A stretch of 64,000 bases of DNA from an uncultured Anaerolineales bacterium (GTDB taxonomy: Bacteria; Chloroflexota; Anaerolineae; Anaerolineales; RBG-16-64-43). The stretch is taken from assembly GCA_964353865.1 (NCBI GenBank), contig CAYGXJ010000078.1:1853-65852 (forward strand), in the 5' to 3' direction. Made by a program: the position numbers and the translations under genes. This document shows positions 46,296 through 63,008 of this stretch, one piece after another; the stretch's first letter is position 1; each line of letters begins with the position of its first letter. Under the pieces are notes generated by a model. That model was not told the DNA's origin and ran no database searches. It worked only from the letters and a program-made list of their open reading frames with translations.

Positions 46296-46316
46296 GATTG
46301 AACTTCCGGGAATCAG

Positions 46317-46354: not shown

Positions 46355-46360
46355 TGCGAT

Positions 46361-46450
46361 TCGGAATCCATTGCTATCGAAGGTCGAGATTCCTCGGGCG
46401 CACCGCGACACCGGAATGACTCCGTGGCTGCTGACTGCATCGGAATGACA
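46361..46450 (-). repeat. Family-C elements in reverse orientation (full 35-nt unit 46386-46420 plus partial copies)
   Basis: Reverse complement of 46386-46420 is GTCATTCCGGTG-N11-CCGAGGAATCTC. Extra CGGAATGAC heads at 46441-46450 and 46361-46369. Confidence 0.8.
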
Positions 46451-46469
46451 GAGAGGCTGAGGAGCGGGC

Positions 46470-46556
46470 GAGGCTGCGCCGCATGCATCATTCGTGCGCG
46501 GGGATTCGGGCGAGTGCCGTCCGCGGGCGGTCAAGGCGTGCTATGCCCTCTTCCGC
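46470..46556 (-). repeat. Family-B interspersed element (reverse orientation)
   Basis: The reverse complement begins GAAGAGGGCATAGCACGCCTTGACCGCCCGCGG..., matching 59759-59800. Confidence 0.7.
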
Positions 46557-46570
46557 ATGATCGCGCGGCC

Positions 46571-47419
46571 TCAGGTCACGCCCTCGAACAAATCACGCTC
46601 GCGGCGTCCCGCCACAGGCGCAGGGACTGCGCGCATGTAGTGCTCGCTGGCACCCAGCCAGCGCTGGAGGAAAGCCAGCGGCCCCAACATCCGTCCACCG
46701 CCCTGGCTCGAATGGCAGGCGGAGGCTTCCTCTTTGACCTTCATGACTCGCCGGATCGATACGGAGGCGTGCACCGGAAAGTCCATTCCCGCGAACGAGG
46801 TCAAATCGATATCACCGTTCTTGCCGAAATGATGCGGGTCGCGGCCAAAGAGCGGCAGCACCCGCACGGCCAAGCGCAGGAAGCCGCGCCCGAAGGTGTG
46901 GAAGTACAGCTTCTGCGGTGCAAAGGCGGGCAGTCCCTCGAGCTCCAATGTATCGTCGCCGGCGATGCGAAATGCGGCGACCGTCGCGTTATGAATTGCG
47001 ATGTGATCGGGGTGCCGATATCCACCGATCGGGTCGAAAGTAAGGACAACCTGCGGACCGATGCGGCGGATGAGCGCTGCGACCTCGCGCGCCACCTTTT
47101 CGAGGGGCGCGGCAGCCAGCGCCTGTGGGTGGAGATTATCGGGCGAGCCGGGCATTCCCGAATCGCGATAACCCAGGAAGTGTACCTGGGTCAGGCCGAG
47201 CGTCTGGGCCGCACATCGCAGCTCCGATTTTCGCATCTCGCCGACCGAAGCAAAGCCTTTGAGGTCCGGGGGAGCCTCGCCCACCTCGCCGGCCGTGGCG
47301 CAGGCAAGATGCACCTCCACGCCCAAGAGCGCGTACAGGGCCAGGGTGCCCCCGGTGCCGAAGGTTTCGTCGTCCGGATGGGCCAGCACAGCCAACAACC
47401 GTTTCGGATTCGGCGTCAT
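46571..47419 (-). CDS. PIG-L/LmbE-family N-acetylglucosaminyl deacetylase
   Basis: LLAVLAHPDDETFGTGGTL and HPDH motifs. 282 aa. Confidence 0.85.
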   Translation of the reverse strand: MTPNPKRLLAVLAHPDDETFGTGGTLALYALLGVEVHLACATAGEVGEAPPDLKGFASVGEMRKSELRCAAQTLGLTQVHFLGYRDSGMPGSPDNLHPQALAAAPLEKVAREVAALIRRIGPQVVLTFDPIGGYRHPDHIAIHNATVAAFRIAGDDTLELEGLPAFAPQKLYFHTFGRGFLRLAVRVLPLFGRDPHHFGKNGDIDLTSFAGMDFPVHASVSIRRVMKVKEEASACHSSQGGGRMLGPLAFLQRWLGASEHYMRAVPAPVAGRRERDLFEGVT

Positions 47420-47579
47420 AGTTCCTCATTCCCTTGCTCACCGGTCTTACTTGCCGCGGGACATGGCGCATTGCGAGGCATGGGCCTCGCGGCATTCTAC
47501 CGCGCCCCTGGTCCTCTACAAAGAGCGGCCCACCCAGGGTGTCGGTGGGCGCGTGGAATGACGAGCCGGCGTGCGGGGA

Positions 47580-48482
47580 TCACGCGAAGCGGGTGAGGCC
47601 GGCGGCTTCGGCGGCCGACCGTGCCCGCGCATACTCTTCCTGGGTCAGCGGGCGGCTGATGTCGGCGTGCTGGCCCGCATGATAGTCCGGGCGGTATTGG
47701 TCCATCAGGTTAAGATACGTCGCGCGGGAGATCGAGCGCGCGAGAAAGCGTGCGATCTGAGAAGTTCCCGCCAGGTTGTTGGGCAGGACGAGATGCCGAA
47801 CCAGCAGCCCGCGCACGGCCAGACCCTCCTGATCCAGCACCAAATCCCCAACCTGGCGATGCATCTCTTTCACCGCGCCCCGATTGACGGCCGGATAATC
47901 GGCGGCGTGCGAGTAAGCCAGCCCTACCCGCGCGTCGGAATACTTCATATCCGGCATGTAGATATCAATCACCCCGTCGAGCAGGTGCAGCGCCTCGAGG
48001 CAATCGTATCCGCCACTGTTGTAGACCAACGGGACGCGCAGCCCCTGGTGCGCGGCCAGGTGCACGGCTTCCAGTATCTGCGCCACCACGTGACTCGGCG
48101 AGACCAGGTTGATATTGTGGCACCCGAGTTCCTGCATGTGAAGCATCATCGCGGCCAGCTCGCCGGCATCGACCTCCGGCGCATCGGGGCTCTGGCTGAT
48201 GGTGTGGTTCTGGCAGAACTGACAGCGCAGGTTGCAGCCCGAGAAGAATATCGTGCCTGAGCCGTTGCGCCCGGTGAGCGGGGCCTCTTCTCCGAAGTGG
48301 GGGTGGAAGGATGCCACGCGCGCCCAGCGCCCGATGCGGCAGGTGCCGGCGTGGGTTGTGCGGTTCACCCGGCAGCGGCGCGGGCACAGGTCGCAGGAGG
48401 TGAGACAGCCGGCCGCCTCTCGGGCGCGCACGGCCAGTTCACCAGAGCGATGCAGAATGAGATAGGCGGGGAATGCGGTCAT
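47580..48482 (-). CDS. PflX-like (COG1313-type) radical SAM protein, intact cluster motif
   Basis: GCNLRCQFCQN (CX3CX2C) plus an N-terminal CDLCPRRC-x10-C motif. ATG 48482. Confidence 0.85.
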   Translation of the reverse strand: MTAFPAYLILHRSGELAVRAREAAGCLTSCDLCPRRCRVNRTTHAGTCRIGRWARVASFHPHFGEEAPLTGRNGSGTIFFSGCNLRCQFCQNHTISQSPDAPEVDAGELAAMMLHMQELGCHNINLVSPSHVVAQILEAVHLAAHQGLRVPLVYNSGGYDCLEALHLLDGVIDIYMPDMKYSDARVGLAYSHAADYPAVNRGAVKEMHRQVGDLVLDQEGLAVRGLLVRHLVLPNNLAGTSQIARFLARSISRATYLNLMDQYRPDYHAGQHADISRPLTQEEYARARSAAEAAGLTRFA

Positions 48483-48507
48483 GGACGGGCGCCGCCCGGC
48501 GCGCCGC

Positions 48508-49473
48508 TCACACGGCAATCGTTGGGCCGCGTTCGATGTGCGCGATGCGTCCGAAACGATGCAAGCCAGCTTCACTCGCCAAGGTCTTGGCGCACTCCAA
48601 TTCGCGCGGCGTGATCTTGCGATACAGATCGCCCAGTCCCTTGGCGCTGCGCGTGGGCCGGAAGTCGTCCACCAGATGGAGATAGGTGTCGGGCGATATC
48701 TGCCGCGCTAGAAAGCGGACAACGTAGGAAGTGCCGGCCAGGCGGTTAGGTAGCACCACGTGGCGCACGAGCAGCCCGCGCACGGCGCAGCCCTCATCGC
48801 TCACCATCAGATCGCCCACCTGGCGGTACATCTCACGCAGGGCGGCGCGGTTGATGCGCGGGTAGTCGCGCACATCGAGGAAGCGGCGCGCCTGGCGCGT
48901 ATAACCGAAGCGCATCTCCGGGGCGTAGATGTCGACAACCCCCTCCAGCAAGGCCAGAGCCACCGGAGCGTCGTATCCGTTTGAGTTGTATACCAGCGGC
49001 AGAGTCAAACCTTGGCGGGCGGCAATTGCCAGCGCCTCAAGGATCTGTGCCACGACGTGGCTGGGGTTGACCAGATTGATGTTGTGGCAGCCAGCGTTTT
49101 GCAGCTCACGCATGCACGCCGCCAGGGCGGCGGGTGTTACCTCGCGCTCCGAGCTTTCATGGCTGAAGGCCATCGGGCGCTGTTCGTTAAGCGGCGCGCC
49201 GGGTTTGCGAAGTTCGCCGCCGGCGAAGAGGATCGCGCCCGAGCCGCGCGATCCGACGAGGCTCGCCTCTTCGTGGTAGTTGGGGATGAAGGCCAGCATG
49301 CGCGCGTCGCGCCCGGTGCGGCATGCGCCAGCTTCGCGAGTGCGATCGGCACCGCAAACGCGCGGGCACAGGTCGCACGCCGAAAGGCGCGCGCGGGCGC
49401 GCTTGGCCCGCTCGGCGAGAGCCGTCTTGCGGCCAAGGCGCAGGTAACCCGGGGCTGGGTCAGAAGCTGACAT
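48508..49473 (-). CDS. PflX-like paralog lacking the radical-SAM CX3CX2C cysteines
   Basis: Colinear with the downstream paralog (GCHNINLV.PSHVVAQILEA, PLVYNS.GYD, RGLLVRH.VLPN.LAGTS), but the cluster motif reads GGELRKPGAPLNEQ. The N-terminal CDLCPRVC-x10-C motif is retained. Confidence 0.8.
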   Translation of the reverse strand: MSASDPAPGYLRLGRKTALAERAKRARARLSACDLCPRVCGADRTREAGACRTGRDARMLAFIPNYHEEASLVGSRGSGAILFAGGELRKPGAPLNEQRPMAFSHESSEREVTPAALAACMRELQNAGCHNINLVNPSHVVAQILEALAIAARQGLTLPLVYNSNGYDAPVALALLEGVVDIYAPEMRFGYTRQARRFLDVRDYPRINRAALREMYRQVGDLMVSDEGCAVRGLLVRHVVLPNRLAGTSYVVRFLARQISPDTYLHLVDDFRPTRSAKGLGDLYRKITPRELECAKTLASEAGLHRFGRIAHIERGPTIAV

Positions 49474-49611
49474 GCGGCAAAGGGGCGGTTGGCATGGGCA
49501 TCAAAACGAATCTCGCGGACGGCACCTGGCAAATTCGCGCCGACCCCACTTGATTGTACCTAAGGTTGGATTGACGGCCCGGCGCGGGGTATGGTATGAT
49601 GCTCGGCATTC

Positions 49612-49689
49612 GGGGGCGTGGTGTAGCTGGCCTAACACGCGGCCCTGTCAAGGCCGAGACCGCGGGTTCGAATCCCGTCGCTCCCGCCA
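49612..49689 (+). tRNA. tRNA-Asp (anticodon GTC), CCA encoded
   Basis: Hand-folded. Acceptor GGGGGCG/CGCTCCC (one G-U pair), D stem GTGT/ACAC, anticodon stem CGGCC/GGCCG with loop CTGTCAA, T arm GCGGG-TTCGAAT-CCCGT, then G-CCA. Confidence 0.9.
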
Positions 49690-49698
49690 CGAACGAAT

Positions 49699-49745
49699 GG
49701 AGGCTCCAGCCGGATCTTTTCGGCTGCGGCCTCCTTTCTGTTATT
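49699..49745 (+). terminator. rho-independent terminator after tRNA-Asp
   Basis: GGAGGCTCCAGCCG-GATCTTTT-CGGCTGCGGCCTCC followed by TTTCTGTTATT. Confidence 0.75.
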
Positions 49746-50172
49746 GGGCAGCCGCCTTGGGGCGTGCATCGCACGAAGGACCCCACTGGTCGAATCCGAA
49801 CCAGCCGCGAGGTACTTGGCCCCCAAAGACCACCGCATGAGGGTCCGGACTTGATCTGTCGAACGTTGCGTTTCGACCTCCATCAGATCAGCAACCCGGA
49901 TACGGATACCTCGCCCCCATCCGCGATTGGGCCACCACGCCCTGGTGCGCATCGATCGAATCGTTTCAACCGGTCGCAAGGAGAGGGAACTTGTGAGGCA
50001 GATCGCCCCTCGGCAGGATCTTGATCCGTGCTGGCGACAACCAAGGTGGAGGCGCACGAAGCGCGAAGGGGCGAAGAGAGGAGCGCGGCCCCATCGATCT
50101 GGCTCGGCGGGATTCAAGGACGCCAATTCCGCACCGGTCGGCGAAACGCGACGACTCGCCGCCCGAGGAAAG

Positions 50173-50199
50173 GTGCGGGATCGGCAGTGCGGGATCGGC
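50173..50199 (+). promoter_or_regulatory. tandem 13-bp direct repeat GTGCGGGATCGGC (x2, 14-bp period) abutting the -35 element
   Basis: 50173-50185 and 50187-50199 are identical. The second copy ends 3 nt before TTGACA. Confidence 0.5.
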
Positions 50200-50202
50200 G
50201 TG

Positions 50203-50231
50203 TTGACACCCCAGTCCACCCATGCTATCCT
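50203..50231 (+). promoter_or_regulatory. sigma-70-type promoter TTGACA-N17-TATCCT of the gntR / methyl-transfer operon
   Basis: -35 at 50203-50208 and -10 at 50226-50231. Confidence 0.6.
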
Positions 50232-50240
50232 GTCCCCGAG

Positions 50241-50264
50241 ATTGGTATATACCACCAGACCAAT
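50241..50264. promoter_or_regulatory. GntR/HutC-type operator: perfect palindrome TGGTATATACCA (50243-50254) nested in ATTGGT...ACCAAT
   Basis: Contains the GT-N-TA-N-AC core typical of HutC-family sites. Lies between the -10 element and ATG 50283. Confidence 0.6.
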
Positions 50265-50282
50265 TTGTTCCAGGCGACACAA

Positions 50283-51071
50283 ATGACGTCTTCCAAGGCC
50301 GAACACGCCTCGCTCAATCCTCTCCAGCTCAAACCTGTCAACCGTCTGGTGGCCGGCGTGCCTCTCTACATTCAGATAGCAGAAGGACTCCTGACCTGGG
50401 TCGATTCGGGTCGCCTCGCTCCTGGCGATCGCCTGCCGCCCGAGCGCGACCTGAGCCAGATGCTTGGCGTGAACCGAATGACTTTGCGCCGTGCGCTGGA
50501 GATGCTCGAGGCGCAGGGGCTGCTGGCGCGCCGCCAAGGTGCCGGCACCTACATCGCCGACCGCAAGATCGAGCGCCAGGCCGGGCAACTAGTCTCGTTC
50601 ACCAAGCGCATGCGCGAGCAAGGCTTCACGCCTGGGGCGAAGGTGATCTCGTTTGAGGAGCGGCCGTGCGGCGCAGCTCTGGCGGCGGCGCTGCGGCTGC
50701 CGGCATTTGCGCCCGTCTACGACATCCGCCGGCTGCGATTCCTCAACGGCCAGCCGGTGCTGCTCGAGCACTATACGCTCCCGATCATGCGCTTTGCGCG
50801 CCTGGCGCGATACGATCTTGAGCAAAACTCGTTGTACGAGGTGCTGCATGAGCACTACGGGGTGGATGTGCATCGGGCGCGCCTCAGCCTGGAGGCGGTG
50901 CTGGCCACCGCGTACGAGTCTGAGCAATTGCTCGTGCCGCTGAGCGCACCGCTGATGCTTGAACGCCGGCTTTCATATGATGCTCTGGGAGCGCCGGTGG
51001 ACCACGGCGAGGACTACTACCGGGGGGACCGTTTTCAATTCGTCACCGAGACGGCGGCGCTGGCGCTGTAG
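50283..51071 (+). CDS. GntR/HutC-family transcriptional regulator (wHTH plus UTRA domain)
   Basis: PLYIQIAEGL...GDRLPPERDLSQMLGVNRMTLRRALEMLEAQGLLARRQGAGTYI followed by a UTRA-like C-terminus. ATG 50283. Confidence 0.88.
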   Translation: MTSSKAEHASLNPLQLKPVNRLVAGVPLYIQIAEGLLTWVDSGRLAPGDRLPPERDLSQMLGVNRMTLRRALEMLEAQGLLARRQGAGTYIADRKIERQAGQLVSFTKRMREQGFTPGAKVISFEERPCGAALAAALRLPAFAPVYDIRRLRFLNGQPVLLEHYTLPIMRFARLARYDLEQNSLYEVLHEHYGVDVHRARLSLEAVLATAYESEQLLVPLSAPLMLERRLSYDALGAPVDHGEDYYRGDRFQFVTETAALAL

Positions 51072-51122
51072 ACCTGCGCCGTGCGAGGCGGCCATTCCGC
51101 CAGGTGAAAGAGGGACGAGGCG

Positions 51123-52643
51123 ATGGGCCAATACTTCGAACTGCTGAGCCGCGATCAGGTGCTGCGGGTTCACGAGGCATCACTGGAGATTCTCGACGAG
51201 GTGGGGCTGCTCATCCGCAATGCGCAAGCGCGTGAGATCCTCGCTGCACATGGCTGCCGCCCGCTGCCCGGGAGCGAGATCATGCACTTCCCGCGAGCCG
51301 TGGTTGAAGAGTTCCGCGTCTCGATCCCGCCCACCTTCACTTTTGGCGGCCGCGAGCCGCGCTTCGACCGGACGATCCCGGACGACAGCCCGGTGATGGT
51401 CACCGGCAGTTCGGCGCCGAACATCATCGACCCGCTGACCGGGCAGGAGCGACGCGCGCGCTCGGAAGACTTGGCACGCATCGCCCATCTCGTCAACGGA
51501 CTCCCGGGGTACGACGTCTTCTCCATCTCAACTCTGGCCGAAGACGCCCCTGCGGGCATGTTCAGCCTCACCCGCTTCTATGCCGCACTTAAGAACTGCG
51601 CCAAGCCGGTGCGCGGCAGCGGCCCGCCTGAGGACACCGAGAAGATTCTGCAACTGGCGTATACCATCGCCGGAAGCGAAGCCGCCTACCGGGCACATCC
51701 TTTCGTGACCCATCACTACTGCCCGGTGGTTTCGCCGCTGACGATGGATTTCGATTCGACCCAGATGCTCATCTATTACACCGAGCAAGGGCTGCCCTGC
51801 TACCCGACCATTGTCCCCAACGCCGGGCTCACATCGCCGCTGACTCTCCTGGGGACTTTAGCCCAGGGCAATGCGGAATTCCTGGCCGCGGCGGTTCTCG
51901 AGCAAATGGTGCGGCCCGGCAAAGCTACGATCTACGCCATGTTACCTACCGTGGCCGATATGCGCAGCGGGGCCTACGCGCCGGGCGCGATCGAGACCGG
52001 CGTGCTCTTCGTGGGGCACGCGCAGATGGCACGTTTCTACAATGTGCCCAACGGCGGCTACATTGGGCTGACCAATTCCAAACTCAACGACGCCCAATCG
52101 GGCTACGAGACCGGTATGTCGCTGGCGCTTGGCCTGGCGGCCGGCGTGGACATGTTCAACACCGGCGGGTTGCTGGACGCGTTGATGGCATTCGATTTTG
52201 CCAAGGCGGCCATTGACGACGAAATCTTCATGATGGCCAAGCGGGCCAAGCGCGGACTGGAGTTCAGCGAGGACAACCTGGCCCTCGATCTGATTCGCGA
52301 GGTGGGACCGGCGGGCATGTTTATGGACAACGCGCACACGTTGGAGCGCATGAAGACGGCCGCCTTCCTGCCCGAGATTTCGGATCGCGACGCTCGCGCC
52401 CAGTGGATCGAGCGCGGCGCCCTGGACTCACAGGAGCGCGCGATGCGCAAGGTGCAAGACATTCTGACCTGCGACAACCCGGTTGTGTTTTCCGCGGAGG
52501 TCGATGCACGCGTGCGCGCCAAATTCGCCGGTCTGGTGGCTGGGGACTCGCGCCCGCCCGAAGGCTGGACACGCGCCGCCCGGACCGCCCGGCGTGAGCG
52601 CACTGAACGGCGGCGACGCGAAGCGGCTGGCCAGAGCAGCTGA
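51123..52643 (+). CDS. MttB-superfamily (non-pyrrolysine) methyltransferase, probable quaternary-amine:corrinoid methyltransferase
   Basis: 506 aa with no in-frame TAG. MttB-like along the full length (LSRDQVLRVHEASLEILDEVG..., IDDEIFMMAKR..., TLERMK). Substrate unknown. Confidence 0.8.
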   Translation: MGQYFELLSRDQVLRVHEASLEILDEVGLLIRNAQAREILAAHGCRPLPGSEIMHFPRAVVEEFRVSIPPTFTFGGREPRFDRTIPDDSPVMVTGSSAPNIIDPLTGQERRARSEDLARIAHLVNGLPGYDVFSISTLAEDAPAGMFSLTRFYAALKNCAKPVRGSGPPEDTEKILQLAYTIAGSEAAYRAHPFVTHHYCPVVSPLTMDFDSTQMLIYYTEQGLPCYPTIVPNAGLTSPLTLLGTLAQGNAEFLAAAVLEQMVRPGKATIYAMLPTVADMRSGAYAPGAIETGVLFVGHAQMARFYNVPNGGYIGLTNSKLNDAQSGYETGMSLALGLAAGVDMFNTGGLLDALMAFDFAKAAIDDEIFMMAKRAKRGLEFSEDNLALDLIREVGPAGMFMDNAHTLERMKTAAFLPEISDRDARAQWIERGALDSQERAMRKVQDILTCDNPVVFSAEVDARVRAKFAGLVAGDSRPPEGWTRAARTARRERTERRRREAAGQSS

Positions 52644-52690
52644 CGTGTGCCGCGAGGCCGGGAGTGGGAGAGGGGCAGGCCCGGCCCTCA

Positions 52691-54766
52691 ATGCATACCC
52701 ATCGATATGGGACGGATGACACTGTGACCGACAAGCCAACCTCAATCCCCGAACACCAACTCGTGCTCGTGCCATCCGGGCGGCGCGGACTCATCGCAGA
52801 GGGGACCGACCTGCTCACCGCCTGCCGCTCACTGGGGGTGGATCTGGAATCGATTTGCGGCGGCAAGCAGACCTGCGGCAAATGCCAGGTCGTCGTGGAG
52901 GAAGGGCGCTACGAGAAACACGGCCTCACCTCCGTCGCACGTCACCTCTCGCCGCCCGAGGCGCAAGAGATCGCCTGCGCGGCCAAATTCGATATCCACG
53001 GCCGACGGCTGGCCTGCGCCGCCCGCGTGCAGGGCGAATTGCTGGTCAGCGTGCCGGAGGAAAGCCAGGCGCGCAAACAGGTCATCGCCAAAGAGGCCAC
53101 TGAGCGCACGATAACCATCCAGCCCGCGGTGCGGCTCATCTATATAGAAGTGACCCCGGCCAACCTGGGTGACCATCGCGGGGATTGGCAACGGGTGCAG
53201 CAGGCGCTGCGTGAACAATGGCAGATCGCGTCGCCGGTCCTCGACCCGGCCGTGCTGCCCAGCCTGCAACCGGCGCTGCGCCGTGGCGGGAGCACGCTGA
53301 CCCTCACCCTGTGGGACGAGCGCGAGGTGCTGCGCATCGAGCCCGGCTATGTGGAGCGGCTGGTCGGCCTGGCGGTGGATGTGGGTTCAACCACTATCGC
53401 GGCTCACCTGTGCGACTTGCGCACCGGCGCCGTGCTCGCCAGCGAATCGATGATGAATCCCCAGGTGCGCTTCGGCGAAGACCTGATGAGCCGAGTGTCG
53501 TACGGCATGAGCGAGCCGCAAGGCGTGGCACGCATGCACCGTGCGGTCATCCGCGCCATCAACGAATTGGCCGAGAAGGCCGCTGCCCGCGGCGGGTTTA
53601 CCTCGGGCGAGATCGTCGACAGCGTGCTGGTGGGCAACAGCATCATGCATCACCTGCTGCTCGGGCTTGACCCGGTTGAGCTGGGCGGTGCGCCGTTTGC
53701 GCTGGCCACCTCCGGACCGCTCGACATGAAGGCGCGCGACCTGGGGCTGGCGTTCCACCGCGGCGCGCGGGTGCACGTGCTGCCGTGTATCGCCGGGCAT
53801 GTGGGCGCCGACCACGTGGCGGCGCTGCTGGCCGAGGCGCCGCACAAGCAAGATGAAGCGATGCTGCTCATCGATGTGGGGACCAACGCCGAGATCTCGC
53901 TCGGCAACCGCGAGCGAATGATGTGCGCCTCAAGCCCGACCGGGCCGGCCTTCGAGGGCGCGCAAATCACCCACGGCCAGCGCGCCGCTCCGGGCGCCAT
54001 CGAGCGGGTGCGCATCGACCGCGTCACGCTCGAGCCGCACTTGAAGGTCATCGGCCATGAGACCTGGGTGGAGCCGCAGGCTGCGGACGAAGTGCCTGCC
54101 CAGGCACGTGCCACCGGCATCTGCGGCAGCGGCATCATCGAGGCCGTAGCGGAGATGTTCCTGGCCGGCATCATCACCTCCGACGGCCGCTTCGACGAAC
54201 AGGCCGCCGAGCGCTCACCGCGCGTGCAATTCGAAGGACGCACCGGGCGCTACGTGCTCGCGGACGCCGCGCAAACCGCTACCGGCGCGCCGATCGTGGT
54301 CACTCAGAGCGATGTGCGCGCGATTCAATTAGCCAAGGCGGCGTTGTATGCCGGCGTGCGGCTGCTCATGGAACATCAGGGCGTCGCGCAGGTCGACCGC
54401 ATTGCACTGGCCGGCGCCTTCGGCAGTTACATCAGCCCGCGCCACGCGATGATCCTGGGCATGATCCCAGACTGCGAGCTGGAGCGCGTGCAGGCCGTAG
54501 GTAATTCGGCGGGCGACGGAGCGCGCATTGCCCTGCTCGACCGCGAGCAGCGAGTGGAGGCGGAGCGGCTGGCGAGATGGGTGGAGCACGTGCAGACAGC
54601 CACCGAGCCCACCTTTCAAGATCTGTTCGTCGCGGCGCTTGCCTTGCCGCACGCGAGCGACGCCTTCCCTCATTTGCAGGCCGAGCTTCCTGCCCCGCGA
54701 ACCGCCGCACGGGCGCGGCCGCGGCAAAGCCACACCAACCCATCCCACCTGGAGAATGCGGAATGA
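52691..54766 (+). CDS. corrinoid reductive-activation ATPase (RACo / RamA-like; N-terminal [2Fe-2S] ferredoxin plus ASKHA ATPase)
   Basis: CGGKQTCGKCQV...LACAARV plant-type 2Fe-2S motif. ASKHA region GLAVDVGSTTIAAHL, LLIDVGTNAEI. Start ATG 52691 (52664/52724 are alternatives). Confidence 0.82.
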   Translation: MHTHRYGTDDTVTDKPTSIPEHQLVLVPSGRRGLIAEGTDLLTACRSLGVDLESICGGKQTCGKCQVVVEEGRYEKHGLTSVARHLSPPEAQEIACAAKFDIHGRRLACAARVQGELLVSVPEESQARKQVIAKEATERTITIQPAVRLIYIEVTPANLGDHRGDWQRVQQALREQWQIASPVLDPAVLPSLQPALRRGGSTLTLTLWDEREVLRIEPGYVERLVGLAVDVGSTTIAAHLCDLRTGAVLASESMMNPQVRFGEDLMSRVSYGMSEPQGVARMHRAVIRAINELAEKAAARGGFTSGEIVDSVLVGNSIMHHLLLGLDPVELGGAPFALATSGPLDMKARDLGLAFHRGARVHVLPCIAGHVGADHVAALLAEAPHKQDEAMLLIDVGTNAEISLGNRERMMCASSPTGPAFEGAQITHGQRAAPGAIERVRIDRVTLEPHLKVIGHETWVEPQAADEVPAQARATGICGSGIIEAVAEMFLAGIITSDGRFDEQAAERSPRVQFEGRTGRYVLADAAQTATGAPIVVTQSDVRAIQLAKAALYAGVRLLMEHQGVAQVDRIALAGAFGSYISPRHAMILGMIPDCELERVQAVGNSAGDGARIALLDREQRVEAERLARWVEHVQTATEPTFQDLFVAALALPHASDAFPHLQAELPAPRTAARARPRQSHTNPSHLENAE

Positions 54767-55446
54767 GCGAGGAATTGGATCTGACCAAGCTGCCGACCGA
54801 GGAGATCGTCCTGCAGATCAAGGACGACCTGTATGATGGACTGGCGGCTGAAGTTGCGGCCGCGGTCCGGGAACTGCTGCGTCGCGGCCTGACGCCCTAC
54901 GAGGTTCTAACCGGATCGCTCGTGGCCGGGATGGATGTCGTGGGTGCGGATTTCCGCGACGGGGTCCTCTTCGTGCCCGAGGTGCTCATGGCCGCCAAGT
55001 CCATGAAGGCCGGCATGGAAATCCTGCGCCCGCTGCTGGTGGAGACCGGCGCGCCGCAGATCGGCACGTTCGTCATCGGGACGGTGAAAGGCGACATTCA
55101 CGACATCGGCAAGAACCTGGTGGCGATGATGATGGAGGGGGCCGGGTTCAAGGTGGTGAACCTGGGCATCAACGTGGACGCGGAGAAGTTCATCGGCGCG
55201 GTGAAGGAGCACAAGCCCACTCTCTTCGGCATGAGCGCGCTGCTGACCACGACCATGCCGTACATGGGGGTGGTGATCAAGGCTCTCAAGGAAGCCGGGT
55301 TGCGCGACGACCTGATTGTCTTGGTCGGCGGCGCACCGCTTAACGCCACTTTTGCCGAAGAGATCGAGGCCGACGCCTACTGTCGCGATGCGGCCATCGC
55401 GGTCGAAACGGCCAAGAAACTGGTCGCGCTCAAGCGCGGGGGCTAG
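54763..55446 (+). CDS. corrinoid (B12-binding) protein, cap plus Rossmann domain
   Basis: DxHxxG base-off/His-on motif GDIHDIGKN, MSALLTTT, VGGAP. ATGA overlap with the activase stop. Confidence 0.9.
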   Translation: MSEELDLTKLPTEEIVLQIKDDLYDGLAAEVAAAVRELLRRGLTPYEVLTGSLVAGMDVVGADFRDGVLFVPEVLMAAKSMKAGMEILRPLLVETGAPQIGTFVIGTVKGDIHDIGKNLVAMMMEGAGFKVVNLGINVDAEKFIGAVKEHKPTLFGMSALLTTTMPYMGVVIKALKEAGLRDDLIVLVGGAPLNATFAEEIEADAYCRDAAIAVETAKKLVALKRGG

Positions 55447-55587
55447 CTTGGCCGCATGGGCAGGAGCGCGTCGGACGAGGCGGGACGGCGGCCAGGGGCT
55501 TGGGCGGGCCGACAATGGGCATCCGCTACCCACCTCGATCGGTGACATCGATATCGGTCCAGACCACGTCGCCAACAAGGAGGCCGA

Positions 55588-56475
55588 ATGACAACCTGGA
55601 GTGAGTTGCTGGCGCAGCCAGGAGTGATCCTCGCCGATGGCGCGATGGGCACGATGCTGATGGCAAACGGACTGGCATTCGGCAATTCCCCTGAACTATG
55701 GAACGTCGATGAGCCGCAGCGCGTGGGAGAGGTTCACGCGGCTTACCTCCAAGCGGGCGCGCGCATCCTCCTGACCAACACATTCGGCGGGAACCGCTTC
55801 CGCTTGCAGCTCCACAACTTGCAGGAGCGTGCCGCCGAACTGAACCGCGCTGCGGCACGCCTGGCTCGCGAAGCCGCGGGGGGCACCGCGCTGGTGGCGG
55901 GCGACATCGGCCCCAGCGGGGGCATCCTGGCGCCCCTCGGCGAACTGGAGCCCGAGGCAGCCGTGGCCGGGTTCGCCGAGCAGGCGGCGGCGCTGGTCGA
56001 GGGCGGGGTCGACGTGATCTGGCTCGAGACGATGTCGAGCCTGGAAGAGATGCGCGCGGCTATCGACGGAGTGCGGCGGGCGTCGGCGGGTATCCCGATC
56101 ATCACCACGATGACGTTCGATACGCGCGGGCGGACGATGATGGGTGTGACGCCCGCGCGCGCGGCGCAGACTCTGAGCGGATGGGGGGCCGTGGCGGTGG
56201 GGGGCAACTGCGGCAACGGGCCGGACGAAATCCTCGAAGTGGTGGCCAAGATGCGGGCGACGGCGCCCGCCGCCACGCTCGTGGCCAAAGCCAACGCCGG
56301 CGTGCCGCACCTTGCGGCCGGGCGTCCGGTTTACGGCGCCGGCCCGGACGACATGGCGCGCTACGCCATCGCGGCCGTCGAGGCCGGGGCGCGCGTCATC
56401 GGCGCGTGCTGCGGAAGCACACCAGACCATTTGCGAGCGATGCGCGATGCGCTCGCAGCCAAAGGCCTGCTCTAG
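55588..56475 (+). CDS. stand-alone homocysteine S-methyltransferase-domain protein (MetH Hcy-module-like)
   Basis: ILADGAMGTML, LLTNTFGGN, Zn-ligand Cys in GGNCG and GACCGSTP. AGGAGG RBS. Confidence 0.85.
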   Translation: MTTWSELLAQPGVILADGAMGTMLMANGLAFGNSPELWNVDEPQRVGEVHAAYLQAGARILLTNTFGGNRFRLQLHNLQERAAELNRAAARLAREAAGGTALVAGDIGPSGGILAPLGELEPEAAVAGFAEQAAALVEGGVDVIWLETMSSLEEMRAAIDGVRRASAGIPIITTMTFDTRGRTMMGVTPARAAQTLSGWGAVAVGGNCGNGPDEILEVVAKMRATAPAATLVAKANAGVPHLAAGRPVYGAGPDDMARYAIAAVEAGARVIGACCGSTPDHLRAMRDALAAKGLL

Positions 56476-56480
56476 CGGGA

Positions 56481-57071
56481 GTGGTTGAGTTGCGAACTGC
56501 CTTGATCGCCTGTGGTGCATTGGCGCGCGAAGTGCTGGCTCTCAAAGCCAAACACAACTGGCAGGCGGAGGTGCTGGCCGTGCCGTCTTTGTTGCACAAC
56601 ACACCCGACCGCATCCCGCAGGCCGTGGCGCGGCGCATCCGCGAAGCGCGTGCCGCCTTCGACCGGGTCATCGTCGTTTACGGCGATTGCGGCACGGGCG
56701 GCCGGCTGGATGCGCTGCTCGCCGCCGAAGGCGTTGAACGTGTGGCGGGGCCTCATTGTTACGAGATGTACGCCAATGGTCAGTTCCAGGCGATGATGGA
56801 CCGCGCGCCGGGCACGTTTTTCCTCACCGACTATTTGGCGCGTTCATTCGATCATCTGGTCGTGGAGCGATTGGGTCTCGATCGCCACCCGGAACTGCGC
56901 GAGGACTTCTTCGCCAACTACACCAAGGTGGTCTATCTGGCGCAGGAGGACAAAGCGGAGCTGGTGGCCAAGGCGGAATGGGCTGCGCGCGCCCTTGGGC
57001 TGCCGCTGGAGGTGGTGCGTGTGGGCTACGGTGCACTCGAATCACGGCTGGTGGAGATGATGAAAGCATGA
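56481..57071 (+). CDS. DUF1638-family protein
   Basis: LIACGALAREV...SLLHNTPDRIP...VIVVYGDCGTGG...GPHCYEMY matches my recollection of the DUF1638 pattern. GTG 56481 or TTG 56490. Confidence 0.7.
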   Translation: MVELRTALIACGALAREVLALKAKHNWQAEVLAVPSLLHNTPDRIPQAVARRIREARAAFDRVIVVYGDCGTGGRLDALLAAEGVERVAGPHCYEMYANGQFQAMMDRAPGTFFLTDYLARSFDHLVVERLGLDRHPELREDFFANYTKVVYLAQEDKAELVAKAEWAARALGLPLEVVRVGYGALESRLVEMMKA

Positions 57072-57373
57072 GCGTTGACGTTCGTATCGTTTCGTGGCGC
57101 GATATCCCGGCGCAGGTGAAGATCGGCGCCGGACGTGCGCGCATATCGCGTCCACTCGCCGAGCGCTTTCAGCGCGCGATCGACGAGGCGGCGATGCGCG
57201 CCGGAAAAAGCGGCAGCGACGAATACCTCACCGAGTGGCGCACCTCCGACCCCGAGACCCGCGAAGGGGAACCCGAATCGGTGGCCGCGGAACTCGTGGC
57301 GGAGATCGAGGCCGCGTACCCCGAGGCGCGGCTGCAGGCCTTGGTGGCTCAGCGCGGGTTAGAGGCCGCATAG
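57068..57373 (+). CDS. small conserved protein with WRDIPAQV motif (I recall this as the Pfam 'Virulence factor' family that accompanies MetF/DUF1638 clusters)
   Basis: 101 aa. ATGA overlap with the DUF1638 gene stop. The family assignment is from memory only. Confidence 0.55.
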   Translation: MSVDVRIVSWRDIPAQVKIGAGRARISRPLAERFQRAIDEAAMRAGKSGSDEYLTEWRTSDPETREGEPESVAAELVAEIEAAYPEARLQALVAQRGLEAA

Positions 57374-57411
57374 TCCTTGCTGCACGACCGGGCGGGGAGA
57401 AGGTAGAGCGC

Positions 57412-57867
57412 ATGTCGTTCCTGCAAAACCATCCGGCGCTGCTCGAGACGGCCTACGACGCAACCACGCGCCTGCTGCATCCGTGGCGGCGCTGGCTGCG
57501 CCGCGGCGGGGCGACCGAGAAGCTTCTGGTCGTCGCCGAGCAGGTGGGCAAAGGCGCCATCTTCGACTGCCGCATGTGCGGCGAATGTGTGCTGCACAAC
57601 ACCGGCATGACCTGCCCGATGACCTGCCCTAAGAATATGCGCAACGGGCCGTGCGGCGGAGTGCGCCCCGACGGCCGCTGCGAAGTCCTTCCCGACCAGC
57701 CCTGCATTTGGACTGAGGCGTGGCAGCGCGCGGCGCGCATGCCCAAGTACGGCGGCGAAATCCACCTCATCCTGTCTCCGCTCGACCGCCAGCAGCAGGA
57801 CCGCTCGGCTTGGTTGAACGAACTTCTCGGCCTGCCGGATTCGGTCCCCCAGGGATGGGACGAATGA
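57412..57867 (+). CDS. metV: methylene-THF reductase C-terminal-domain protein (MetV-type Cys-rich subunit)
   Basis: CRMCGECVL...TGMTCPMTCPKNMRNGPCGG. Its stop overlaps the metF start (ATGA). Confidence 0.8.
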   Translation: MSFLQNHPALLETAYDATTRLLHPWRRWLRRGGATEKLLVVAEQVGKGAIFDCRMCGECVLHNTGMTCPMTCPKNMRNGPCGGVRPDGRCEVLPDQPCIWTEAWQRAARMPKYGGEIHLILSPLDRQQQDRSAWLNELLGLPDSVPQGWDE

Positions 57868-58823
57868 AGAGCGGCTCCCGGCTCGAGCGCGTGTTGCACT
57901 CCGGGCGATTTGCGGTGACGGCCGAGCTGAACCCGCCCGACAGCGCCGATGCGCAGGCAGTCTACGACCGCGCGTTGGTGCTGGCCTCGGTGTGCGACGC
58001 GATCAATGCCACCGATGCCTCGGGCGCCAATGTCCACATGTCGAGCGTCGGGGTGTGCGCATTGCTCACACGCGCCGGCTACGAGGCTGTGCTGCAGGTA
58101 AGCTGCCGCGACCGCAATCGCATCGCCATACAGGGCGATCTGCTGGGGGCGGCCGCCATGGGCGTGCGCAACGTGCTGTTCCTCACCGGCGACGGAGTCC
58201 AGGCTGGCGATCAGCCGCAGGCCAAGCCGGTGTTCGATCTGGATTCGATCGCTGCGCTGCGCATGGCACGCCTGATGCGCGACACGGGGCGCTTCCTTAG
58301 CGGGCGGACCCTCGAGGTGCCGCCGCGCATCTTCATGGGGGCGGCTGCCAACCCGTTTGTGCCACCGGTGAAGTTTCGCGCCCAGCACTTGGCCAAGAAA
58401 GTGGAAGCCGGGGCCGATTTCATCCAAACCCAGTACGTCTTTGACCTGGCGCGCATGCGCCAGTTCATGCGTGAAGTGTGCGATTTAGGGCTCGACCGCC
58501 GCGTCCACATTCTGGCTGGCGTGGGCCCGCTGCGCTCGGCCAAGACCGCGGAGTGGATGCGCAGCCACGTGCCGGGAGTGGTGGTGCCGGATGACGCGGT
58601 ACATCGCCTGCGCGGCGTGCCGACCGACCACCAACGCGAAGAGGGCAAACGCCTGTGCATCGAGATTATCCGTGAACTGCGCGAGATGCCTGGCATTCAT
58701 GGAGTGCATGTGATGGCCTATCGCCAGGAGGAGCTGGTGGCGGAAATCATCGAAGAAGCCGGCCTGCTCCCGCGACGGGCGGAGCCCGAAGCGACGGCGC
58801 GAGTTGAGGAGAAAGTGGCCTGA
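57864..58823 (+). CDS. metF: 5,10-methylenetetrahydrofolate reductase
   Basis: FAVTAELNPP, LQVSCRDRNR, FLTGD, KVEAGADFIQTQ. Confidence 0.88.
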   Translation: MKSGSRLERVLHSGRFAVTAELNPPDSADAQAVYDRALVLASVCDAINATDASGANVHMSSVGVCALLTRAGYEAVLQVSCRDRNRIAIQGDLLGAAAMGVRNVLFLTGDGVQAGDQPQAKPVFDLDSIAALRMARLMRDTGRFLSGRTLEVPPRIFMGAAANPFVPPVKFRAQHLAKKVEAGADFIQTQYVFDLARMRQFMREVCDLGLDRRVHILAGVGPLRSAKTAEWMRSHVPGVVVPDDAVHRLRGVPTDHQREEGKRLCIEIIRELREMPGIHGVHVMAYRQEELVAEIIEEAGLLPRRAEPEATARVEEKVA

Positions 58824-59727
58824 TGGAAACCATTCTTCGTTCGCCGGGGCGCGAAGTGCGCATTGGCCCGGCGCGGCCCTTCGTCATCATCGGTGAACGG
58901 ATCAACCCGACCAACCGCGCGCGGCTGGCGGCGGAAATGGCGGCCGGCGATTTCTCACGGGCGCGCGCGGAGGCGATTGCCCAGGTGCAAGCCGGGGCGC
59001 AGGTGCTGGATGTCAACGCGGGCATTCCGCTGGCCGACGAACCGGCCATCCTAGCCGAGGCTATCCGCGTCATCCAGGAGGCCGTCGATGTGCCGCTGCG
59101 CATCGATTCCTAGCTTGTCAAAGCGCTGGAAGCCGGTTTGGCCGCCTATCGCGGCAAACAGCTGGTCAATTCGGTGACCGGCGAGAGCGAGCGCCTGGAA
59201 GTGGTGCTGCCGCTGGTGAAGAAAAACGGCGCGGCGGTGATCGGCGTGGCCAACGACGAGGGCGGTATCTCGGAAGACATACACGTGCGTTTCGCGGTGG
59301 CACAGAAGATCGTCGAGCGCGCGGAAGCGTTCGGCATCCCGCGTGAAGACGTGCTCATCGACCCGTGGCCATGCCCATCGGCGCGGTTGCCGCCGCCGGC
59401 GTCTCGCTGTTTGCCTTGGCGCGCCGGCTGCGCGAGGAACTCGGGGTCAACACCGTGTGCGGGGCACCCAATATCTCGTTCGGCCTGCCGGATCGCGTAA
59501 TGCTGAACGGCGCCTTTCTCACCATGGCCATCGGCGCGGGCATGACCTGTGCCATCACTAATCCGCTGGAGGAGGACTTGCGCAAGTTGATCCTTGCGGC
59601 GGATGTGATGATGGCCCACGATGATAACTGCGCGTCGTGGCTCGCGGCGCAGCGACCGGCCGGCGACGGCGCGCGCGAGGAGCGTCTGGCAAGGCGCGAA
59701 CGGCGCCGGGCGCAGCAGGGCGTGTAG
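58823..59727 (+). pseudogene. pterin-binding methyl-THF:corrinoid methyltransferase (MetH pterin-module / MtgA/AcsE-like) disrupted by an in-frame TAG (59111-59113) and a 1-nt deletion near 59363
   Basis: GERINPT..., LDVNAG, PLRIDS-TAG-LVKALEAGL...QLVNSVTGE..., VLIDP then a frame change to (L)AMPIGAV...CGAPNISFGLPDR. The start overlaps the metF stop (TGATG). Confidence 0.65.
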
Positions 59728-59758
59728 CGCGCATCAAGCTGTCCTCGACAGCCAATCT

Positions 59759-59825
59759 GGAAGAGGGCATAGCACGCCTTACATTTGACCGCGCGCGAGT
59801 GGCATGCGCATGGCCCTGCGCGCGT
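59759..59825 (+). repeat. Family-B interspersed element
   Basis: GGAAGAGGGCATAGCACGCCTTACATTTGACCGCGCGCGAGTGGCATGCGCATGGCCCTGCGCGCG. See 26171-26235 and 46470-46556. Confidence 0.8.
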
Positions 59826-59908
59826 TCCACGCTGCCCGGGTGACAGCGTTGGCTCGCGGGCCACGCGGCGCGACAGGCGCGCAAGTGCCTGTGCTACACT
59901 AACCTTCG

Positions 59909-62900
59909 ATGTCCGTCGAGTACCTGCTCGGCCCCGCCGCCTCAGGCAAGACCCACGCCTGCATTGAGCGTGTGCAATCGCTTCTGGCCAAGAAGAGGCT
60001 CGCCTCGGCCTGGGTGGTTGTGCCCACGCGAACCAGCGCCACCTCCTTCCGCCGCCGGCTGGCACAATCCGGGGGCGCACTCGGCGCTACCATCCTCAGA
60101 TTCAGCGGCCTGTACGACGAGATCCTCGCCCGCGCCGGCCAGTTCATCCCGGTCGCCGATGAGGCCGTCGTTCTGCGCATGGTGCGCGCAGCGATCGATG
60201 CGCTGCACGCCGACGGCATCCTTCCCTACTACGCCCCCATCCGGCGCTCGCCGGGGTTAATTCGCGCCATGGCCGAGCACATCGCCGAATTCAAGCGGGC
60301 GATGCTGACCTCCGAGCAGCTTCAGGCGGCGCTCGTGGACGCCGCGCCGCGACTGACGGAGATGGCAGACATCTACCGCGTCTACCAGGAGGGGCTGCAG
60401 GCGCTGAGCTGGGTGGATCGCGAGGGAGCCGGCTGGCTGGCAGTGCGCGCGCTCCAGCGGCAGGCTGGCCTCCTGCGATCGGTTGACCTTCTGATCGTGG
60501 ACGGGTTCGATTCCTTCAGCCCGCTGCAACTCGAAGCGCTCACCGCGCTCGGCGAGCAGGTGGGCCTGATGGTCATCACGCTGTGCGGTGAGCCGGAGAT
60601 GAGTCGCGCCGCCTACCGGCGGTTCGAGCGCACACACCGCACCCTGACCGAACGCCTGAATCTCTCGCCGGTGATGCTCACTCCGGGCGGCCAACGGCCG
60701 ATGGCGCTTGGGCATCTTGAGCGTTACCTCTTTTCGGCGGAGGCGCCGCAAGTCGATGGCGGGACGGAGGTCGCGCTTCTCGAGGCGCAAACCCAGGCGC
60801 TGGAGGCGCGCGAGGCGCTGCGCTGGATCAAGGCACGCCTCCAGCGCGATGAGCTTAAGCCCTTCGAATGCGCGATCATCGCGCCCGACCTGCGCCCATA
60901 TCAGGCTTACCTGCGCGAGGCGGCGCGCGAGTTCGACCTGCCGGTGCGCTTCGTGCAGGGTGATGTGCTCGAGAACAACCCGGCGATCGCCTCGATCCTG
61001 GACCTTCTTCAACTTCCGCTGCTCGAATGGCCGCGACGGTTGCTGCTGAACGTCGTCTCCAGCCCGTACTTCGATCTGGGCAGTTGCCAATTGGCGCGCG
61101 ACGACGCCTGGCCGCTCGAGGAAGCCGCGCGCGCGGCTCAGGTCATCCGCGGTCTCGACCAGTGGCGGGAGGGCCTGGCAGTTCTCGCGGATGCCGCGCC
61201 GCCACCAGCCACGGATGAGGAAGACACGCCACTGCGCGCCCCATCCGGCGAGCAGGTGCGCCGCCTGGCAGCGGCGCTCGAACGGCTGGCCGAGCGCCTT
61301 CGCCCCGCGCCGGAGGCGACACTCGCCGAGCATTCACGCTGGGCGCTCGAGCGGCTCGACGATGCCGAAGGATTTGCCGTCGAGCGCCAGGTGCGCGCCG
61401 TGCCCGAGAATTCGGAGCGGGACCTGGCGGCGCTGGAGGCGCTGCGGCAGGTGCTGGACGCGCTCGTGCTCAGCGAGAAGGCGCAGCCCAACCCGCCGCG
61501 CGTCGCATATCGCGAATTCATCGACGAGTTGCGCGAGGCGGTGGGTGCCGCCACCTACCAGCCCGAGGGCGATGAGGCCTGGCGCGGTTCGCGCATATGC
61601 GTGGCGGACCTGACCCAGGCGCGCGGCGTGCCCTTCGCAGCCGTGGCCCTGCTCGGCGTGGCAGAAGGCATCTTCCCCAGGCGGCTGAGCGAGGACCCGT
61701 TCCTCACCGACAGCGACCGCGGGCAGTTGATCGAGCGCGGTCTGCGACTCGAGCCGCGCCTGCGCAGCGATCAGCAGACCGTCTTCTACGAGGCCGTCAC
61801 GCGCGCCGAGCGCTTCTTGCTTCTCACGCGGCCATACCTTTCGCCGGAAGGCGAGGCCTGGGAGCCCTCGCCCTACTGGCAAGCGCTGCGCGAAGTGGTG
61901 CGCGTCGTGCCGCAGCGCGTGCGCAGCGAAGGCTGCCTTCCGCTCTCCGAGGCGGCCTCGCGCTCCGAACTCCTGGCGCAGGCTCTACTGCGCGGCGACC
62001 TGCCCGCAGAGTACGCGGAACTCGGCGGCGAGTGGCGTCAGGCACAACATGCCCGCCGCATATTGCAGGCGCGCCTGGCGCGCGAGGCGGAGGGCGAGTT
62101 CGATGGGCAGCCGGCGGACCTCGCGCCGGTGCTGCGCCTAGCCTACGGCCCGCGGCACGTCTTCAGCCCTGGCCGGCTTGAGACCTACGCCGGCTGCAAA
62201 TTCCACTTCTTCATCCAGAAGGCGCTCGCGCTCGAAGAACTGGCCGAACCCGAAGTAGGATTCGATCCGGCGCAGTTAGGGACGATGCTGCACGAGATCC
62301 TCGAGCAGGTTTATGCGAGCGCTGGGGACGTCTCCAACCTTGAGCTGCTCCTCGAGTCGCTTGAGCCGGCGGCCGAACGAGTTTTCGCCGACGCGCCGCG
62401 GCGGCTTGGTTTTCGCCGCTCCCCATTATGGGAAGCCGAACGGGCCGGCCTGCTCGACGACCTGCGCCAGACGCTGCACGCGTTGCATGCCTACTCGACC
62501 GGATATCGCCCGGCGCGGCTCGAGGCGCGGTTCGGGATGGAGGGCGACCCGCTGCGGCTGGAGACCGCGGCGGGCGAAGTTCTGTTGCACGGGATCATCG
62601 ACCGTGTGGACGTGGATGCGCTGGGCCAGCTGCGAGTGATCGACTACAAGACCGGGTCGAGCCGGCTCGAGATGCGGGATCTTGAAGAGGGGCGCCGGCT
62701 GCAGATCACGGTTTACGGGCTTGCGGCCGAAGGCGTGCTGGGGCTGGGCCGGCTGGCCGAGGGCGTGTATTGGAAGATACGCCAGGCCGGAGCCAGCGCG
62801 CTCAAGTTGGAGGCACTCAACTATGTTTCGGAGGCGGGCAAGCACTACGCCGGCGTGAACGGCGCGGCGGACCTGGTCCGCCATTACATCGGGAATTACG

Positions 62901-63004: not shown

Positions 63005-63008
63005 GGGC

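Follow-up and report, generated by a model that had tools for sequence, protein, structure and literature searches.

Mausz et al. 2025 (PNAS, PMC12478193) showed by genetics in Ruegeria pomeroyi that methionine synthesis and growth on glycine betaine each depend on both MtgC and MtgD. In the published model, MtgB (PF06253), MtgC, the bidirectional MtgD and MtgE make up a dual glycine-betaine demethylase and split methionine synthase, to which RamA, DUF1638 and MetF2 have been tied by proteomics and earlier fitness data, and in Sinorhizobium meliloti MtgBCDE is colocalised with two reactivation modules (PMC12478193). A three-part MetH that goes with a RamA-like protein and DUF1638 has been described in Phaeobacter, where DUF1638 shows cofitness with the split methionine synthase (Price et al. 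2018, PMC5764234), and a 2025 preprint describes MtgBCD and MtgECD as complexes that compete, with mtgE expression lowered in the presence of methyl donors (bioRxiv 10.64898/2025.12.19.695462). In Mausz et al. (PMC12478193), MtgC falls in a distinct clade near CmuA, apart from MetH and from the MtgC of anaerobes, and Chloroflexota are not mentioned. Here we describe an operon of ten genes in a 64-kb stretch of DNA from an uncultured Anaerolineales bacterium (assembly GCA_964353865.1, contig CAYGXJ010000078.1, positions 1,853 to 65,852; hereafter the window, meaning the whole stretch of 64,000 nucleotides that was analysed). Our comparative analysis indicates that this operon is probably a Chloroflexota (Anaerolineales-type) member of the MtgBCDE class, with the folate link cut in the window lineage.

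An earlier note on this DNA, made from the sequence alone, had read the locus as one operon joining an MttB-family methyl donor to all MetH functions encoded as separate proteins, and had taken this architecture to be uncharacterised. The combined system had in fact been described (Mausz et al. 2025, PMC12478193), and the finding therefore refines existing knowledge and is not a new system. The functional logic that the note had set out, with one corrinoid carrier, an MttB donor alongside a pterin/MetF route, homocysteine as acceptor and ATP-driven reactivation of the RamA/RACo kind, matches the published MtgBCDE model (PMC12478193, PMC5764234). The note had methyl-tetrahydrofolate (methyl-THF) as a donor; MtgD is bidirectional in the published model, and THF is therefore also a major acceptor, in catabolism, and not only a donor. 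What is new is the Chloroflexota lineage, the all-in-one operon with mtgB and mtgE together, a conserved alternative pocket in the MttB protein, and a natural knockout of mtgD.

According to the list of open reading frames (ORFs) and Pfam, ten co-directional genes lie on the + strand from 50283 to 59727 (Table 1). They run from a GntR/HutC regulator to a pterin-binding gene, as first proposed, and every domain assignment of the operon products was backed by a Pfam profile search. The four start/stop overlaps were also exact (ATGA at 54763, 57068 and 57864; TGATG at 58823). The gene set is thus as it had been given, but the tenth, pterin-binding gene is not an intact ORF: it contains an in-frame TAG and has lost a T, and neither lesion appears in the earlier note.

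Most components of the MtgBCDE class could be recognised individually. The corrinoid protein is a stand-alone protein in which a B12-binding_2 cap and a B12-binding domain are combined with the motif GDIHDIG in translation, in agreement with the DxHxxG corrinoid protein called before; its best NCBIfam match is 'glycine betaine-specific corrinoid protein MtgC', at a score below the cut-off. The best NCBIfam match of the activase, also below the cut-off, is AcsV-like, and Pfam identified both a RamA/RACo-like activase and a DUF1638 protein, as in the published systems. The small PF13769 protein always adjoins DUF1638 in relatives.

The homocysteine module has its Zn cysteines in GGNCGNG and GACCGST, and C208, C274 and C275 are invariant in the alignment of relatives, which bears out the stand-alone Zn homocysteine S-methyltransferase of the first description. 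It is 55% identical to a homolog in a Roseobacter metagenome-assembled genome (MAG) that is flanked by DUF1638 and Virulence_fact PF13769 (L031), and with its Pfam and NCBIfam matches and its invariant cysteines it was classed as a stand-alone module of the MtgE type. The nearest solved structure is the Thermotoga maritima MetH homocysteine (Hcy) domain (1e-54), compared to 8e-22 for BHMT and 4e-17 for HMT, which speaks against the idea that the enzyme is self-sufficient, that is, a BHMT using glycine betaine or an MmuM-type enzyme using S-methylmethionine or S-adenosylmethionine (AdoMet), merely co-located with a betaine-catabolic MttB system. We consider this very unlikely, though the protein does pass NCBIfam NF005718, a model named 'betaine--homocysteine S-methyltransferase' and built around alphaproteobacterial proteins (339.9 bits vs a cut-off of 338), and its S. 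meliloti homolog was first described as Bmt (PMC12478193). That S. meliloti-type 'Bhmt' has since been argued to lack betaine-binding residues and to be MtgE (PMC12478193), and the Phaeobacter ortholog, PGA1_c13370, is needed for methionine synthesis with B12 and pterin modules (PMC5764234). Close coupling to the corrinoid carrier points the same way, the homocysteine-module gene beginning 1-3 nt past, or overlapping, the corrinoid protein gene in the relatives L086-L089.

The same ten-gene operon, with an intact mtgD, was found in six relatives (L001-L004, L006 and L008); MtgE identity to the window is 96% in L001-L003 and 90% in L004. In L086 and L087, at 76% MttB identity, the gene order from GntR to Pterin_bind is the same and mtgD is intact. 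The order is kept in L088 (73% MttB identity) apart from an added EamA gene, and the MetV site there holds only a called ORF of 42 aa; in L089 (69%), which also has EamA, the order can be followed as far as Virulence_fact, past which the contig ends. The EamA-family transporter gene lies between MttB and RACo in both (L088, 7723-8589; L089, 11538-12404). Linkage of the homocysteine methyltransferase gene to MttB, on which the original proposal depended, therefore extends to relatives with as little as 69% MttB identity.

The feature that sets the window apart from its relatives is the state of mtgD. The intact gene in relatives encodes a 301-aa Pterin_bind protein that passes NCBIfam NF005719. 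DNA alignment showed that the Ser codon TCG of its IDSS motif is TAG in the window, and that one T of CCG TTG GCC is missing near 59365. Ten indels separate the window from L001 over 14.2 kb at 93% identity, and the mtgD deletion is the sole one within a coding region. Independent copies were located by exact look-up of the truncated 96-aa product, an exact copy of which is present in two Logan assemblies of separate runs (ERR3804373 and ERR4334728); a third contig carries a one-residue variant of the same 96-aa length. Both Logan contigs contain the TAG, and the contig from ERR4334728, the one that extends to the deletion site, also contains the 1-nt deletion. When JGI metagenome contigs were scanned with a degenerate pattern for either allele, TAG or TCG, L005 was the only contig to match, and no independent copy of the window allele was obtained.

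Substitution patterns agree with loss of function. Changes were counted branch by branch for the window and L001, with L004 as outgroup. In mtgD, 16 synonymous and 18 non-synonymous changes fall on the window branch, where six other operon genes together have 96 and 36 (Fisher p=0.007); on the L001 branch the counts for mtgD are 17 and 4, an ordinary ratio next to 102 and 23 in the other operon genes. The window-specific changes include S216P in the GxSNxSFG motif. Selection on mtgD is relaxed on the window branch only, and mtgD is a genuine, decaying pseudogene in the window lineage. With a TAG and a frameshift, the window copy does not supply the functional pterin-binding module (MtgD) of the MtgBCDE class, and the folate link of the window operon is therefore cut. 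The earlier picture of two donors serving one carrier accordingly fails in the window genome, where the pterin module is a pseudogene.

The operon comes from a family historically tied to pyrrolysine (Pyl), and MAG consensus sequences are error-prone, so that the two interruptions might in principle be harmless, either as assembly errors or through recoding, with TAG read as pyrrolysine and a programmed frameshift downstream. We find this scarcely credible. Assembly error was rejected because two other runs yielded contigs with the TAG, one of them with the deletion as well, and because no other indel falls in coding sequence over the 14 kb compared. Pyrrolysine recoding was rejected because relatives have Ser (TCG) at this codon and a frameshift lies within the same gene; there are, besides, no pyl genes in the 64-kb window. 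A programmed frameshift was rejected because no slippery motif was noticed on reading the sequence at the deletion site, relatives do not have the deletion, and selection is relaxed, as seen in the non-synonymous excess in mtgD on the window branch.

A broader form of decay was also considered, in which the whole operon is functionless in the window lineage and mtgD is merely the first gene to break. Beyond the two lesions and the non-synonymous excess in mtgD itself, this would fit MetV, whose window-branch changes are 5 synonymous vs 7 non-synonymous and whose dN/dS (0.22) is the highest of any intact gene, as well as the ratio of non-synonymous to synonymous changes in the other genes, which in raw counts is somewhat higher on the window branch (36:96) than on the L001 branch (23:102). 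We judge it improbable all the same, given that reading frames are intact in nine of the ten genes, that the translational-coupling overlaps are all preserved, and that dN/dS is low in most genes: 0.03-0.10 in MttB, RACo, the corrinoid protein, the homocysteine module, DUF1638 and PF13769, all of them intact, and 0.10 in the intact MetF.

Two other observations concern the sequence of the operon and its surroundings. First, in L004 (a 1.9-Mb contig, the 90%-identical relative) single-base indels break the MttB (5545-6899) and the MetF (12278-13238) gene each into two ORFs, and the DUF1638 and RACo genes are also called shorter. Because single-base indels are many in this contig, the split genes suggest sequencing error rather than real pseudogenes, unlike the reproducible lesions of the window mtgD. 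Second, window 45583-59824, which holds the operon and upstream genes, is 93% identical to L001, whereas the adjoining addB/addA genes are only 71% identical (window 59830-63005 vs L001 14371-17493). Since L004 stays at ~80-83% identity over both parts, this fall suggests a recombination or replacement breakpoint directly downstream of mtgD.

By homology to the systems known genetically in Ruegeria, Phaeobacter and Sinorhizobium, the operon would be controlled as one transcription unit by the GntR/HutC regulator, and its MttB-family enzyme would methylate Co(I) of the corrinoid protein from a methylated substrate. The resulting methyl-Co(III) could then be unloaded in two ways: by the pterin module to THF, after which MetF/MetV would oxidise methyl-THF into the one-carbon pool, or by the Zn homocysteine module to methionine. 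With the flow reversed, a split MetH would be made up of MetF/MetV, the pterin module, the corrinoid protein and the homocysteine module. The RACo/RamA-like activase, with DUF1638, would restore Co(I) with ATP and not with AdoMet. In the window lineage, either the route from MttB through the corrinoid protein to homocysteine is still used, or a paralogous pterin module elsewhere substitutes. No paralogs of the operon proteins were found elsewhere in the 64-kb window, nor were metH, metE, cobalamin or betaine-transporter genes found in the rest of it.

The former case, the direct route of the earlier note, can be taken further, to an operon that is now mainly a folate-independent, corrinoid-dependent methionine synthase and has lost a dispensable pterin module; MttB would pass a methyl group from some methylated compound to the corrinoid protein, from which the homocysteine module would make methionine. 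This is partly compatible with a MtgBCDE-class operon whose folate link is cut, and we regard it as a real possibility, if on the whole an unlikely one. A true mtgD pseudogene stands next to six intact genes at dN/dS 0.03-0.10, mtgB and mtgE share one operon, and MttB four-gene clusters in Phycisphaerae and Ignavibacteria (described below) have no pterin gene within flanks of up to 10 kb; the intact MetF and MetV, however, are hard to square with a useless folate link, and mtgD is intact in all relatives. In Ruegeria, moreover, the mtgD mutant is a methionine auxotroph that does not grow on glycine betaine (PMC12478193), and direct flow from MtgB to MtgE is only hypothetical. A paralogous pterin module may also lie outside the window.

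We examined the donor module for indications of its substrate. The MttB ORF is uninterrupted over 506 aa, without an in-frame TAG, and has Leu at the residue aligned to Pyl of Methanosarcina barkeri MttB, so that its description as a non-Pyl homolog stands. It scores 329 bits against TIGR02369, the model for pyrrolysine-dependent MttB, whose cut-off is 525. The nearest solved structures are those of the glycine betaine methyltransferase MtgB of Desulfitobacterium hafniense (9yce/2qne; 7e-66, ~32-34% identity), and the M. barkeri MttB structure 7xcl is a weaker match (9e-46).

Several points weigh against placing the window operon fully within the MtgBCDE class, and one is the substrate pocket. 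The betaine-binding residues of D. hafniense MtgB are Y97, R312, H348 and F356 (Picking et al. 2026, PMC13080624), and R312 is conserved in all characterised non-Pyl MttB members (PMC13080624). Aligned to this protein, the window MttB reads S/G/N/L at the four positions, as do all of its 120 closest homologs in the database (identity 66% or higher); in the S. meliloti structure 4YYC they are Y/R/H/G. The window MttB does not, then, have the glycine-betaine-binding residues of MtgB sensu stricto, and an MtgB-like glycine-betaine function is therefore not to be assumed. The quaternary-amine donor of the original proposal is no more than a candidate here, as the enzyme is without all four betaine-binding residues, including the Arg kept in every characterised non-Pyl member. 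A further point is that the search for metH, metE or a second pterin module covered the 64-kb window, and copies elsewhere in the genome are possible. Lastly, mtgE is regulated reciprocally to mtgB in roseobacters (bioRxiv 10.64898/2025.12.19.695462) whereas here the two share one operon, and the physiology may therefore differ.

The MttB clade is a coherent subfamily with a different pocket, and the window protein would act as an MT1 of the MttB family. Putting these elements together gives a more specific proposal, which we make tentatively and think doubtful: that a natural mtgD knockout keeping MttB, activase, corrinoid protein and homocysteine module would be a folate-independent methionine synthase, that its donor would probably be no acidic betaine, given the replacement of the conserved Arg/His pair that binds the carboxylate, and that the S/G/N/L clade would represent a new MttB substrate specificity.

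In three relatives (L086-L088; regions L086:18570-21524 and L088:15603-17554) the operon neighbours an 808-aa protein with DAO, FAO_M and GCV_T domains that is dimethylglycine/sarcosine-dehydrogenase-like. A choline-kinase-like gene is a further neighbour in L086 and L087, and phosphodiesterase and ABC transporter genes are in L088. Judged by their predicted products, these neighbours may hint at betaine- or choline-type substrates. No such genes, dehydrogenase-like or choline-kinase-like, are present in the window.

To place the homocysteine module in a wider context, its homologs were surveyed with one genome per species, and the best 80 loci were kept and annotated by tblastn with the operon proteins. 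Among these best 80, the full operon was present only in L006 and L008 and partially in L019, and the homologs at 55-64% identity were mostly solitary. In about 37 of the 80 loci (L041, L043, L047, L055, L058 and others; many from Anaerolineae), a homocysteine S-methyltransferase gene is followed directly by a MetF gene. In layout the pair is reminiscent of the fused YitJ-type enzyme, and a short MetH (Hcy + pterin + B12) is usually to be found within a few kb; for stand-alone homocysteine modules in Chloroflexota this is another setting, and a common one. In a few loci of other Chloroflexota, RACo, corrinoid protein and homocysteine module are clustered with no MttB adjoining, and a betaproteobacterial MAG has a cluster of corrinoid protein, pterin module, RACo, MetV, MetF and homocysteine module; from their gene content, these loci (L029, L033, L080, L020 and L049) look like split MetH operons without a donor module.

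Two Phycisphaerae MAGs and one Ignavibacteria MAG contain a tightly packed cluster of four genes (L079:1597-5319; L057:6952-10858; L085:1085-4782), encoding an MttB-family methyltransferase, a stand-alone MetH-type activation domain (PF02965), a corrinoid protein and a homocysteine S-methyltransferase. The MttB pocket in these clusters is S/Q/S/E, and no pterin-binding gene was found in the flanking sequence on either side, up to 10 kb. The arrangement looks like a split MetH with an MttB module in place of the folate module, and with no pterin gene nearby, donor-to-homocysteine wiring therefore appears to exist elsewhere. Literature searches found no published description of a cluster of MttB, PF02965, corrinoid protein and homocysteine module.

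The coordinates of the operon features are given in Table 1. The regulator is the first gene, as had been described, but the start that had been placed at 50173 is most likely at 50283 instead, because the latter gives the 262 aa called in relatives and leaves the promoter-like site at 50203-50231 upstream. No riboswitch, cobalamin or other, was detected anywhere in the window, where the Rfam matches comprised one tRNA. Upstream of the operon, on the opposite strand, are tandem paralogous radical-SAM-like genes at 47580-48575 (-) and 48508-49473 (-), of which the first keeps CxxxCxxC (CNLRCQFC) and the second has lost it and has no Pfam match. The Phaeobacter split-MetH cluster also holds a radical SAM gene, which is dispensable there. 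A tRNA-Asp (GTC) gene at 49612-49689 (+) is situated within the 800 nt that separate the radical-SAM-like genes from the regulator. Far from the operon, at 8252-10096 (+), a 614-aa protein is an apparent fusion of ETF beta-like and alpha subunits (two ETF domains and an ETF_alpha FAD-binding domain).

Table 1. Features of the operon and its upstream region, in window coordinates.
Feature	Position	Strand	Basis and remarks
Promoter-like site TTGACA-17-TATCCT with TG	50203..50231	+	Consensus scan, 5' of regulator gene; count not above shuffle expectation, weak
GntR/HutC-type regulator, GntR HTH + UTRA effector domain, 262 aa	50283..51071	+	Pfam; same 262-aa gene called in L001-L004 and L086-L089
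Non-Pyl MttB-family methyltransferase, MtgB-like methyl-donor module, 506 aa	51123..52643	+	Pfam PF06253 1.6e-88
RACo/RamA-like [2Fe-2S]-ASKHA corrinoid reductive activase, 700 aa	52664..54766	+	Pfam Fer2 + RACo_linker + Raco_middle + RACo_C_ter
Corrinoid protein, MtgC-like, 227 aa	54763..55446	+	Pfam B12-binding_2 cap + B12-binding; DxHxxG motif
Stand-alone Zn homocysteine S-methyltransferase module, MtgE-like, 295 aa	55588..56475	+	Pfam PF02574 (S-methyl_trans) 3.4e-68
DUF1638 protein, 193 aa, probable TTG start	56490..57071	+	Pfam; 193-aa call taken from relatives
PF13769 'Virulence_fact' small protein (the WRDIPAQV protein), 101 aa	57068..57373	+	Pfam 4.5e-26
MetV (MTHFR C-terminal, Cys-rich subunit), 151 aa	57412..57867	+	Pfam PF12225 7.9e-26; 151-aa call taken from relatives
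MetF-type methylenetetrahydrofolate reductase, 319 aa	57864..58823	+	Pfam PF02219 (MTHFR) 4.4e-36
Pterin-binding methyltransferase gene, mtgD-like, pseudogene in window genome	58823..59727	+	Interrupted; 301-aa intact Pterin_bind in relatives
In-frame TAG replacing Ser codon TCG of conserved IDSS motif in mtgD	59111..59113	+	DNA alignment with relatives
1-nt deletion in mtgD, CCG TTG GCC to CCG -TG GCC, frameshift	59364..59366	+	DNA alignment with relatives

These results extend the MtgBCDE link between methylated-amine catabolism, cobalamin and methionine synthesis from marine Proteobacteria to Chloroflexota MAG lineages, with the window operon as its most compact form among the loci surveyed. 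The S/G/N/L pocket, conserved in a large MttB clade comprising the window protein and its 120 closest homologs, may point to a different methyl donor. The natural loss of the pterin module bears on the question of direct methyl flow from MttB to homocysteine without folate.

Compared to known systems, the operon shares with canonical MetH the homocysteine, pterin and B12 modules. Here, however, they are separate proteins and not a single polypeptide, an MttB donor is added, and the activase is of the ATP-dependent RACo type; the AdoMet-reactivation domain PF02965 was not found in the operon by Pfam, and metH equivalog models scored far below their cut-offs. BHMT of the human/SAR11 type shares the S-methyl_trans fold and the Zn site, and the overall reaction, betaine methyl to homocysteine, would match, but it is corrinoid-independent and binds betaine directly, and the window protein is much closer to the MetH Hcy domain. 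If the direct route operates, homocysteine would be methylated from a methyl-corrinoid protein as in the folate-independent core-MetE synthases MesA-D (Price et al. 2021, PMC7857596), whose acceptor is of an unrelated fold, MetE-like as opposed to S-methyl_trans in the window. With the MtgB/MtgC/MtgA system of D. hafniense (2QNE, 9YCE; PMC13080624) the operon has in common Leu at the Pyl position, the logic of MT1, corrinoid protein and pterin MT2, and RamA-type activation; that system differs in having no homocysteine module and in belonging to an anaerobic Firmicute, and the window enzyme lacks all four betaine residues, with R312 replaced by Gly.

The closest likeness is to MtgBCDE of Ruegeria, Phaeobacter and Sinorhizobium, with which the operon shares a non-Pyl MttB donor, corrinoid protein, pterin module, Zn homocysteine module, RamA/RACo activase, DUF1638 and a dedicated MetF. 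It differs in its S/G/N/L pocket and in the mtgD pseudogene. It also differs in lineage and layout: Ruegeria and Phaeobacter have the parts at scattered loci, and marine taxa mostly have an unlinked mtgE, whereas in this Chloroflexota window all parts, together with MetV and a GntR regulator, are joined in one tightly coupled operon.

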